Positions 4,880 to 9,524 are shown, numbered from the stretch's first letter. The stretch: DNA of 14,006 bases from Escherichia coli (GCF_003334255.1 NZ_QOWU01000080.1), one strand, 5' to 3'. Numbers and translations are program-made. Notes: a model not told the origin generated them from the letters alone.

Positions 4880-4994
4880 GGTAGGGTGAGCTCAATAAAC
4901 TGGCTGACGTTATTTATTAGGGAGGTGCTGAGGTGGATATTTTTAAAAAGCAAATTGAATGTTGTAACTAATGAATATCAAAATAAAAGGCCGC

Positions 4995-5174
4995 TTACGC
5001 GACCTCAGCCTTTTGCGGTTTTGGCTTGGTGATATACCACGATAGACAACCGACAATAAAACTCATGAACATTCCAGTAAAACGATCATCGATGCCTGGA
5101 AACAGGCAACCGACAAACATCGCAACAGGGAAAGGAAGAAGTAAACAGCGCCCCAAAATGCTCATAAAATCCAT
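4995..5174 (-). CDS. Small hydrophobic membrane protein (59 aa), unknown function
   Basis: ATG at 5174 is preceded by AGGAGG with a 4-nt spacer; product MDFMSILGRCLLLPFPVAMFVGCLFPGIDDRFTGMFMSFIVGCLSWYITKPKPQKAEVA. The six-frame track extends it to a GTG at 5210 inside a hairpin, which I consider unlikely. Confidence 0.4.
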   Translation of the reverse strand: MDFMSILGRCLLLPFPVAMFVGCLFPGIDDRFTGMFMSFIVGCLSWYITKPKPQKAEVA

Positions 5175-5192
5175 AAATCCTCCTTTGTTAAA

Positions 5193-5219
5193 GGGCAGGA
5201 AGCGGTGCACTTCCTGCCC
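5193..5219 (-). terminator. GC-rich hairpin, probable terminator of the toxin transcript (possibly bidirectional)
   Basis: 10-bp perfect stem GGGCAGGAAG / CTTCCTGCCC with a 7-nt loop, about 20 nt downstream of the toxin stop; followed by TTTAA on the minus strand. Confidence 0.5.
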
Positions 5220-5240
5220 TTAGTTACGTTTCCGCAGTCA

Positions 5241-5336
5241 TCAATCGATGAACTGACGGATCAGTTCCAGAACTGCAATCAGCGCGTTTGCAACGGCGAC
5301 CACAGCCCTGAGAACGATGATTAACAGGTTAATCAT
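5241..5336 (-). CDS. Candidate type I toxin: 31-aa hydrophobic peptide, DinQ/TisB-like
   Basis: Not in the ORF track (below size cutoff). Translates to MINLLIIVLRAVVAVANALIAVLELIRQFID; GGAG sits 6 nt upstream of the ATG; resembles DinQ as recalled (shared IIVL and ALIA.LELIR blocks). Confidence 0.5.
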   Translation of the reverse strand: MINLLIIVLRAVVAVANALIAVLELIRQFID

Positions 5337-5413
5337 CCGTTTCTCCAGGTTGATACTGGAGGAAGTTGCCGTTGCTTGCTCATACATCGCCTGTCACAAC
5401 GGCTCTCTCACAT

Positions 5414-5453
5414 TGTTGGATGTAGAGTACCTTCCCCCTGCCAGAGCACTGAA
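5414..5453 (+). repeat. Copy 1 of a ~40-bp repeat, within the putative toxin leader
   Basis: TGTTGGATGTAGAGTACCTTCCCCCTGCCAGAGC... is roughly 85% identical to the copy at 5658-5697. Confidence 0.6.
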
Positions 5454-5623
5454 CACAGCACCACCTGTTTGTTCAGCCAGGGCTTTAATTCGTTCATACC
5501 CAGATAGCGCAGGGTTTAGAAGCAAGGGAGGCACACTGTACAGCGCCAACACAAAGATTATACAGATGCACGCATAAAATTCATTTAAAGAAATGGCCAT
5601 TGACAGACAATCTGAAGTCAAAC

Positions 5624-5650
5624 TAGACAACTGGTGTCTAGTGCCATAAT
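5624..5650 (+). promoter_or_regulatory. Putative sigma70 promoter for the small RNA
   Basis: TAGACA (5624-5629), 15-nt spacer, extended -10 TGcCATAAT (5642-5650); alternative -10 TAATAT at 5647-5652 with a 17-nt spacer. Confidence 0.3.
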
Positions 5651-5656
5651 ATTGTG

Positions 5657-5748
5657 GATGTTGGATGTAGAGTATCTTCCTCCAGTCAGAGCCACCAACT
5701 CAGGACTGGAAAACACGAAAAAGCCCGATTACCAGTCGGGTTTTTTTG
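5657..5748 (+). ncRNA. Candidate ~90-nt small RNA (AgrB-like antitoxin), divergent from the toxin gene
   Basis: Promoter-like elements upstream and a strong intrinsic terminator at the 3' end; body contains repeat copy 2, which is imperfectly complementary to the minus-strand toxin transcript at copy 1. Confidence 0.4.
5722..5748 (+). terminator. Rho-independent terminator
   Basis: Stem GCCCGA / TCGGGT with loop TTACCAG, followed by seven T; A-tract upstream, so possibly bidirectional. Confidence 0.6.
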
Positions 5749-6149
5749 TGCCTGTCGTTCGACTGTTCTTCCGTTTTTTCCCTTCATTTGGGGGATTTTC
5801 TTTCAGTTTTTTTGTTAAGTCCAATGCTGCCGGTCGCGTTGGCCAACAGATCAATGCCGTTATCGGCGTTTCCATTAATCCTTTTTTTCAGTAAGTTGCA
5901 GCACAAAAGATGATTAAAAAGCTATCAGTTTTTTTGATGGATACAGTAGCGGCGGTACGCTGCGTGAAATCTGAGGTTTTCGGGTAGGATTGGTCGCGAG
6001 AATTTACGAGAGAGCGACGGGCGGTTTCTGCACTGAGACAAGATACAACCGTTCTTTTTTTTCCCCTTCACGCCGTAGCTGAGCGATCTCGTCTCTGTTA
6101 CGCTGAAGTTCAATGATAGTCGTAATATTTAACTCTTTACCTCTTTCGT

Positions 6150-8899: not shown

Positions 8900-8916
8900 C
8901 TCAAAGAGGAAGCACT

Positions 8917-9141
8917 ATGTTTACATGTAACTATAGCCATGCTCGCGATAACCTGGCCTCGTTGCTCGAGCTGGCGGTTGATGAAAATCAGCCAGTTGAG
9001 ATTCAGCGCCGTAAAGGTGGCGCAGCTGTACTGGTTGATAAAGACGCTTTTGAACGATACCGTAAAGCGGCTCTTGATGCTGAGTTTGCTGAGATCATGC
9101 AAAGTCATGGGACGGCCTATACGGAGCTTTCTAAGCGATGA
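8917..9141 (+). CDS. phd: Phd-family antitoxin
   Basis: 74 aa, MFTCNYSHARDNLASLLELAVDENQPVEIQRRKGGAAVLVDKDAFERYRKAALDAEFAEIM..., closely resembling P1 Phd as recalled; GAGGA 6 nt upstream; stop overlaps the doc start (ATGA). Confidence 0.85.
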   Translation: MFTCNYSHARDNLASLLELAVDENQPVEIQRRKGGAAVLVDKDAFERYRKAALDAEFAEIMQSHGTAYTELSKR

Positions 9142-9524
9142 AATTCGTTAGTTCACAGGAAGTGATTGAGTTTCATGACCGCTTGATTTCGCGTGATGGT
9201 GGCGTGGCGGGTATGCCAGAACCCGGTCGCGCTGACGCGATCATTCATCGTGTTTTGAACATGTATCATTATGAAGGTGTGACAGATATTATGGATCTGG
9301 CTGCCGTGTATTTAGTTGCTATTGCTCGTGGTCACATTTTCAACGATGCAAATAAGCGAACAGCCTTGTTTGTTGCACAGGTTTTTTTAAAACGGAATGG
9401 TGTACATATTATTAGTTCACGTATTTCGTTTGATGAAATGCAAATTATCGCTTTGAATGCTGCAACAGGAGAATATAACTGGAAGATGGTTTCTGACCAT
9501 CTTAAAGCCATTATTCTAAATTAG
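9138..9524 (+). CDS. doc: Doc toxin (Fic/Doc family)
   Basis: 128 aa with the Doc-type motif HIFNDANKRTA and GMPEPGRADAII, resembling P1 Doc; translationally coupled to phd. Confidence 0.9.
   Translation: MKFVSSQEVIEFHDRLISRDGGVAGMPEPGRADAIIHRVLNMYHYEGVTDIMDLAAVYLVAIARGHIFNDANKRTALFVAQVFLKRNGVHIISSRISFDEMQIIALNAATGEYNWKMVSDHLKAIILN

Follow-up and report, generated by a model that had tools for sequence, protein, structure and literature searches.

The 14,006-nucleotide stretch of Escherichia coli DNA considered here (GCF_003334255.1 NZ_QOWU01000080.1; the whole of this stretch is hereafter called the window) contains, at about 5190 to 5750, a dqlB toxin gene on the minus strand and, divergent from it on the plus strand, a gene for a small RNA (sRNA) of the AgrB family. 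A first-pass annotation, made from the sequence alone, had proposed a type I toxin-antitoxin locus resembling dinQ and agrB at this place, and the elements that it described are all present, within 0-3 nt of the positions it gave. The window is 100% identical to NZ_CP060062.1, which represents 99.8 kb of plasmid DNA from E. coli strain G6/7; this plasmid is typed as IncK2/Z by PLSDB, and RefSeq also annotates an IncFII RepA on it. The homologues that we compared with the locus are 16 diverse plasmid loci (IncX1, X3, X4, I1/K1, K2/Z, N, L/M and F hybrids) and dinQ-agrAB of E. coli K-12.

The dqlB gene and the agrB RNA

The dqlB coding sequence occupies positions 5241..5336 on the minus strand, stop codon included, and specifies a hydrophobic peptide of 31 amino acids, MINLLIIVLRAVVAVANALIAVLELIRQFID (WP_000609149.1), exactly the translation that had been given for it; its ribosome-binding site GGAG lies at 5346-5343, 6 nt 5' of the ATG. 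Against the NCBIfam model for DqlB (NF041473) the peptide scores 72.8 bits, with a cut-off of 35, and residues 1-31 fall on profile positions 1-31, whereas against the DinQ model (NF041472) it scores 25.3 bits, below the cut-off of 30, and only residues 18-30 align. The NCBIfam search at E <= 1 returned these two models only, and not TisB, ZorO, ShoB or Hok. In a BLASTP comparison with K-12 DinQ, VANALIAVLELIR aligns with VLGALIALLELIR (10 of 13 residues identical), and the IIVL and ALIA.LELIR blocks that the first-pass annotation had named as shared with DinQ are indeed common to the two peptides. Its proposal of a DinQ/AgrB-like type I locus is borne out by the family models (NF041473 for the peptide, RF02891 for the RNA), but the gene is not dinQ itself and belongs to the named DqlB subfamily. 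Likewise, the gene had escaped the track of open reading frames (ORFs), which has a cut-off of 60 amino acids, but it is not unannotated: RefSeq/PGAP names the identical WP_000609149.1 "DinQ-like type I toxin DqlB", both here and on many other plasmids. The peptide is identical at 26/31 residues to the pOXA-48-type toxin and at 28/31 to the IncX3-type toxin.

The dqlB frame remains open upstream to an ATG at 5387 (5241-5387, minus strand), which would extend the peptide to 48 amino acids. We rejected this longer reading: the upstream ATG lies inside a conserved stem-loop of the leader (SL4, described below), has no Shine-Dalgarno sequence, and is followed directly by a stop codon (ATG-TAA) in most homologues; therefore, the start of the 31-codon frame is the real one. 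Downstream of the gene, the terminator (5190..5221, minus strand) has a 12-bp stem followed by UUUAAC. Its stem is a perfect 12-bp inverted repeat (I1; 5191-5202 and 5210-5221) that begins 19 nt past the stop codon, where a 10-bp hairpin at about 20 nt had been noted. K-12 dinQ and every homologue sampled keep both the hairpin, whose stem covaries, and the CCTTTAAC that follows it.

The agrB sRNA is predicted to span about 90 nt (5659..5748, plus strand), with a pairing region at 5659-5692, an internal stem-loop at 5681-5710 and a terminator at 5716-5748. Its start lies 323 nt from the dqlB ATG at 5336, in agreement with the divergent unit of about 90 nt, with promoter-like elements and a strong terminator, that had been placed some 320 bp upstream of the toxin. 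The promoter scan found a sigma-70-like promoter, TAGACA-17-TAATAT, at 5624..5652 (plus strand; 9/12 match), in an 801-bp region that holds three promoter-like sites where 0.7 are expected, and in the IncN and IncL/M loci the agrB-like RNAs likewise have TAATAT as their -10 element. When the RNA was searched against Rfam, as the first-pass annotation had suggested, it matched AgrB (RF02891) over the full length of the model at 5661-5748 on the plus strand, with 68.8 bits against a gathering score of 40 (E = 3e-10). AgrB is the sole Rfam family above threshold in the window, and a search of 4900-6100 at E <= 1 gave nothing but AgrB above threshold and no other type I sRNAs. A second, agrA-like copy was not found, the AgrB match being single both in the whole window at the gathering threshold and in 4900-6100 at E <= 1. 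The predicted fold of agrB has an energy of -33.1 kcal/mol (z = -4.8), with a 15-bp terminator stem and a U-run.

Pairing with the toxin leader and the Shine-Dalgarno switch

The first-pass annotation had noticed that a segment at 5658-5697 resembles one at 5414-5453 inside the expected toxin leader, with roughly 85% identity. The repeat exists, but it starts one nucleotide later, at 5659, and the identity is 32/40 (80%); in the longer register, 5414-5461 versus 5659-5706, it is 38/48 (79%), with 30/34 over its first 34 nt. Of the four DNA differences in this part, three become G-U wobbles in RNA, so that the first 34 nt of agrB pair at 33/34 positions with the dqlB leader at 5447-5414, about 77 nt 5' of the start codon. 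This AgrB target site (5414..5447, minus strand; +104..+137 of the leader; direct repeat D1) forms a predicted duplex with agrB of -59.7 kcal/mol, compared with -22.8 +/- 2.8 kcal/mol for 1000 shuffles of agrB (z = -13), far more than chance would give. The pairing would act in trans, as had been expected, since the RNAs are transcribed away from each other, without overlap, from promoters separated by about 110 bp. The distance from the end of the pairing site to the start codon downstream is 70-77 nt in all intact loci detected by Rfam.

The sequence of the pairing segments varies widely among loci yet stays complementary inside each of them. Across 13 loci, two-sided changes occur at 28 of the 34 pairing positions; cognate pairs have on average 31.1/34 positions paired, as opposed to 23.3 for permuted partners, and 0 of 2000 permutations reach the observed value. 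The cognate duplexes average -53.6 kcal/mol versus -30.2 kcal/mol for non-cognate ones, and for 12 of the 13 agrB RNAs the best target is their own leader.

For the leader, we aligned the 260 nt upstream of the dqlB start codon with the leader and promoter of K-12 dinQ (13 sequences). In this alignment the dqlB -10 element, TATAAT (5557..5562, minus strand), falls on the -10 of the K-12 dinQ promoter, which has been mapped; all 13 loci have the T, A, T and final T of this element. With the +1 (5550) set by alignment to the experimentally mapped K-12 dinQ +1, and the 3' end by the conserved terminator, the predicted primary transcript has 361 nt (5190..5550, minus strand), consisting of a 214-nt 5' untranslated region, the ORF and the terminator. 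Within this leader, and all on the minus strand, we distinguish four elements that could form a switch. Element 1, GCCUCCCUUGCU (5521..5532; +19..+30), is paired with element 2, GGCAGGGGGAAGG (5430-5442), in the minimum free energy (MFE) structure that RNAfold gives for the full-length mRNA, and so would act as a lock; element 2 lies within the AgrB target site. Element 3, ACUUCCUCCAG (5356-5366), and element 4, the Shine-Dalgarno sequence CUGGAG (5343-5348), make up a hairpin that would hide the Shine-Dalgarno (5343..5366), and its CUCCAG/CUGGAG stem is present in all 13 loci. The RNAalifold consensus of the 13 sequences contains the duplex of elements 1 and 2 (compensatory changes in 3/6 pairs), stem-loop SL2 at 5446..5483 (6/9 pairs), stem-loop SL4 at 5368..5403 (5/9 pairs; also predicted by RNAfold) and the Shine-Dalgarno hairpin, with compensatory changes in 15/32 pairs altogether; these structures belong to the model published for the dinQ leader (PMC5066626). 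The full four-element arrangement, namely duplexes 1:2, 2:3 and 3:4 together with SL2 and SL4, is thus predicted for the window leader.

The RNAfold predictions for different forms of the leader point to three states. In the full-length RNA, elements 1 and 2 are paired and the probability that the Shine-Dalgarno is unpaired is 0.00. When the first 55-67 nt or so are removed, this probability rises to 0.20-0.26 and an alternative fold arises in which element 2 pairs with element 3, this being the MFE structure of the form that starts at +68. Masking of the agrB site brings the probability back to 0.00. The same three states were seen for dinQ by SHAPE and in vitro translation (PMC5066626), and the predictions suggest that they may hold for the mRNA encoded in the window as well.

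Interpretation and alternative explanations

Taken as a whole, these features make us confident that what lies here is a DqlB-AgrB type I toxin-antitoxin module, carried on a plasmid and intact. For the window, the analysis shows that both genes belong to their families, that agrB and the leader can pair and co-vary, that the leader is homologous to that of dinQ and that the switch elements are conserved, and the sequence itself holds nothing contrary to this reading. A consensus -10 promoter that lacks a LexA box would give rise to a dqlB mRNA of about 361 nt, in which element 1, near the 5' end, would pair with element 2; with element 2 bound in this way, element 3 would be free to sequester the Shine-Dalgarno GGAG, and the primary transcript would therefore be translationally inert. 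Removal of the 5' end would allow element 2 to pair with element 3, so that the Shine-Dalgarno would open and the 31-residue DqlB could be translated, a membrane peptide that would damage the inner membrane. The divergent, non-overlapping 90-nt AgrB would pair through its first 34 nt or so with the leader segment that contains element 2; its binding would re-close the Shine-Dalgarno hairpin and, by analogy with dinQ, form a substrate for RNase III. Upon loss of the plasmid, the antitoxin RNA, being unstable, should be the first to decay, and the toxin should then kill the cell (post-segregational killing).

This mechanism draws on work on relatives of the locus. For dinQ, the Shine-Dalgarno hairpin closes when agrB binds, and RNase III cleaves the duplex in vitro (PMC5066626). 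For the DqlB of the IncL plasmid pOXA-48, studied in 2025, expression with its 5' untranslated region is toxic, with ghost cells as a result; the cells are rescued by agrB in trans but not by an agrB with a 4-nt pairing mutation, no transposon insertions were recovered in agrB, and agrB alone prevents death after forced plasmid loss (PMC12365149). In work of the same year on the IncX3 plasmid pOXA-484, growth is inhibited by dqlB alone but not by the complete locus, which also stabilises a test plasmid (PMC12317039). By analogy, toxicity, rescue by agrB, the processing step, cleavage by RNase III, differential RNA stability and plasmid stabilisation would all be expected of the locus in the window. 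It shares with the pOXA-48 and pOXA-484 loci the 31-residue peptide, the location on a plasmid, the divergent agrB upstream of a long dqlB leader, a pairing of the 5' end of agrB with the leader over about 34 nt, to within 70-77 nt of the start codon, and the same Shine-Dalgarno hairpin and terminators. Unlike them, it has its own pairing sequence: the agrB of the window is predicted to bind the IncL/M, IncN and IncX3 leaders at -21 to -40 kcal/mol, compared with -59 kcal/mol for its own leader. It also differs in having an internal stem-loop in agrB, which the IncL/M and IncN RNAs lack, and in residing in a mosaic accessory region rather than in the backbone maintenance region.

The more distant hok/sok system of plasmid R1 and tisB/istR-1 have in common with the DqlB-AgrB locus a small membrane toxin, an inert primary mRNA that is activated by processing, and an antisense RNA as the antitoxin; hok/sok in addition shares the logic of post-segregational killing, and tisB/istR-1 the divergent, trans-encoded sRNA that pairs far upstream of the ribosome-binding site (PMC5066626). 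Neither shows sequence similarity, or Rfam or NCBIfam similarity, to the locus in the window. What sets them apart from dqlB-agrB is, for hok/sok, the overlap of Sok with hok in cis and the activation of hok by 3' processing, and, for tisB, a ribosome standby site and LexA control.

Several points weigh against the assignment to an intact DqlB-AgrB module. The -35 element of the dqlB promoter is poor, the dqlB +1 and the putative processing site are placed by alignment alone, the leader has about 18 extra nucleotides in its variable 5' region, and the opening of the Shine-Dalgarno predicted upon truncation is partial (0.2-0.26). The peptide is identical to the tested peptides at 26-28 of its 31 residues, and the pairing sequence is unlike theirs. 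Gene conversion rather than selection could account for part of the co-variation between agrB and the leader, whose pairing segments are direct repeats in the DNA; however, the differences in eight loci comprise 20 that are compatible with wobble pairing versus 15 mismatches, and this excess of G-U-compatible differences argues for selection on pairing. Finally, what this copy contributes to stability may be redundant, because it lies in a mosaic accessory region, rich in insertion sequences (ISs), of a plasmid with two other dqlB-agrB modules.

The last of these points can be extended into an alternative explanation, in which the locus is intact in sequence yet silent or redundant, a hitch-hiking fragment of an IncX backbone without a role in plasmid maintenance. 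The surroundings lend it some credit. A block of 967 bp (5008-5974) is shared, at 99.9% identity, with 34-kb IncX-type plasmids such as NZ_AP043967.1, and the match ends abruptly; in those plasmids the block adjoins genes with HEPN and ApeA domains and a backbone with H-NS, Hha and topoisomerase genes, and in the window its flanks are a truncated resolvase gene, transporter and oxidoreductase genes, IS fragments and a Phd/Doc pair. The mobile context supposed by the first-pass annotation is thereby upheld, as the locus is on a plasmid and the block is common with IncX-type plasmids. The truncation of the adjoining resolvase gene, the two further dqlB-agrB modules and several other toxin-antitoxin systems on the host plasmid, and the decay known in the family (2 of the 16 plasmid loci lack both promoters) fit the same explanation. 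However, both promoters, the Shine-Dalgarno, the ORF, both terminators and the 33/34 pairing are all intact here, and the locus is found at >=99% identity in 169 E. coli records. A promoter-bearing toxin gene without antitoxin control would be lethal; therefore, the intact pair implies active repression at least, and we consider a silent or redundant passenger improbable.

Even less probable is that the locus is a plasmid copy of dinQ proper, that is, a stress toxin repressed by LexA and induced in the SOS response rather than a constitutive addiction module. K-12 dinQ-agrAB, which lies between arsR and gor, has a homologous leader (elements 1-4, SL2 and SL4) and terminator, an AgrB of the same Rfam family with antisense pairing at the same position, and a peptide with the blocks IIVL and ALIA(L/V)LELIR. 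The two nevertheless differ in the peptide (31 residues with an ATG start and a four-residue insertion in the window; 27 residues with a GTG start in K-12), in the number of antisense RNAs (a single agrB as opposed to agrA and agrB), in the distance from agrB to the start codon (323 nt versus 505 nt) and in location (plasmid versus chromosome), and the peptide falls short of the cut-off for DinQ. A further difference concerns LexA. K-12 dinQ has a LexA box over its -10, whereas no CTG-N10-CAG occurs at the dqlB promoter (K-12 TACTGTATGATTATCCAGTT, window ATCTGTATAATCTTTGTGTT at the aligned position), and the box is kept neither in the window nor in 11 other aligned plasmid loci.

The sole such motif nearby, CTG-N10-CAG at 5465-5480, is part of a LexA-like 20-mer, ACCTGTTTGTTCAGCCAGGG (5463-5482, plus strand), which differs only at its last base from a site at dqlB of pTF2. 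The pTF2 20-mer was predicted to be an SOS box (HI 11.64) without supporting expression data, and no change in DqlB protein was seen in that study (PMC12211044). In the window the motif lies at +71..+86, within the transcribed leader and inside the covarying stem SL2, and for this reason we regard its conservation as a reflection of RNA structure, although LexA may bind there. Control by LexA as in dinQ was accordingly rejected for the DqlB-AgrB locus.

The notion that the region encodes ordinary plus-strand proteins, with the peptide and the RNA being incidental, finds encouragement in the 78-residue hypothetical protein that RefSeq annotates at 5658-5894 (WP_000887751.1) and in an ORF of 86 amino acids at 5317-5577, both of which are on the mechanical ORF list, but it can practically be discounted: stop codons break both frames in homologous loci (L004, L005, L006, L008, L009 and L011; 57-71% translated identity), neither ORF has an NCBIfam match, the annotated coding sequence begins at the 5' end of agrB without a ribosome-binding site and reads through the strong terminator, and the nucleotide conservation is accounted for by the RNA structures. 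Since the frame of WP_000887751.1 specifically holds stop codons in L004, L005, L006 and L011, this RefSeq coding sequence is probably spurious; it covers agrB, which is itself unannotated in the plasmid record.

Neighbouring genes and relatives on other plasmids

A second hydrophobic ORF, of 59 amino acids (WP_000347021.1; 4995-5174, minus strand), begins with MDFMSILGRCLLLPFPVAMFVGCLF, has an AGGAGG ribosome-binding site, and starts about 17 nt past the dqlB terminator hairpin. A protein with 78% identity is encoded in an IncX4 plasmid (L004), and the ORF is absent from the other sampled loci; it has no NCBIfam match. Because its conservation is restricted to the IncX4 locus among those sampled and it matches no family, we do not count it as a third component of dqlB-agrB. 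On the other side, 3.2 kb from dqlB-agrB, a type II toxin-antitoxin pair lies at about 8916-9523 (plus strand), consisting of a Phd/YefM antitoxin and a Doc (death-on-curing) toxin; an ORF at 9138-9524 is on the ORF list. As a whole, NZ_CP060062.1 carries Hok/Gef, Phd/Doc, YacAB and GNAT/DUF1778 modules. A phage origin of the window was considered and rejected, the matches in the phage collection being confined to its IS parts.

The DqlB-AgrB module is widespread. Positions 5150-5800 match 1735 places on plasmids and 9 on chromosomes, and a more sensitive search found the module on >=5000 PLSDB records, the majority being conjugative plasmids from Escherichia, Klebsiella and Salmonella. Of the 16 plasmid loci, 12 have an AgrB match that reaches the Rfam gathering score. 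In the other four (IncN and IncL/M; L012, L014, L015 and L016, at about 1277-1390) a scan for complementarity revealed a shorter agrB-like RNA, which has the same terminator and pairs from its 5' end. The Rfam model thus under-detects the IncN and IncL/M branch, although this branch includes the experimentally validated pOXA-48 type.

Some plasmids carry more than one module. NZ_CP060062.1 has three: the IncX-type copy of the window and, about 48 kb away, a tandem pair of complete IncK/I-type modules (L021 37743-38934, corresponding to 87743-88934 of NZ_CP060062.1). In silico, the three agrB RNAs bind their own leaders at -58 to -68 kcal/mol and the others at -32 to -46 kcal/mol, a predicted preference of 12-27 kcal/mol, which suggests that the three modules are orthogonal. 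Tandem modules also occur in the IncX1/X3 hybrid plasmid pExPB5-59-1 (L003 18-380), where, beside an annotated dqlB, there is a second AgrB match (294-380; 56 bits) and a second stretch resembling a dqlB leader (18-176).

Conversely, the roughly 240 bp between the direct repeats, both promoters included, are missing from two of the 16 plasmid loci. In these (L017 1030-1200 and L018 1020-1185) the target repeat of the leader is joined directly to the 3' half of agrB, and in L017 the dqlB ORF is truncated as well. These alleles look like the products of a repeat-mediated deletion that disarmed toxin and antitoxin together. On the level of the family, and from comparisons made in silico, one could speculate, though we hold this scenario to be rather doubtful, that diversification of the pairing segments yields orthogonal addiction modules that can be stacked on one plasmid, that recombination between the repeats offers a safe way to disarm a module in one step, because both promoters are deleted at once, and that the LexA-like site in the leader might add an SOS input.

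The DqlB-AgrB system is already known: the dql family was named in 2016 (Kristiansen et al.; PMC5066626), curated models exist for the protein and the RNA, RefSeq annotates the toxin, and the system was validated on two plasmids in 2025. The locus in the window adds no new biology beyond these validated homologues, and its main value is for annotation. With a toxin gene of only 31 codons and an RNA for its antitoxin, dqlB-agrB is easy to overlook. It is a real and widespread determinant of plasmid stability, and for plasmid curing and other anti-plasmid strategies the DqlB-AgrB variants present on a plasmid are of consequence, as is the question whether they cross-react.

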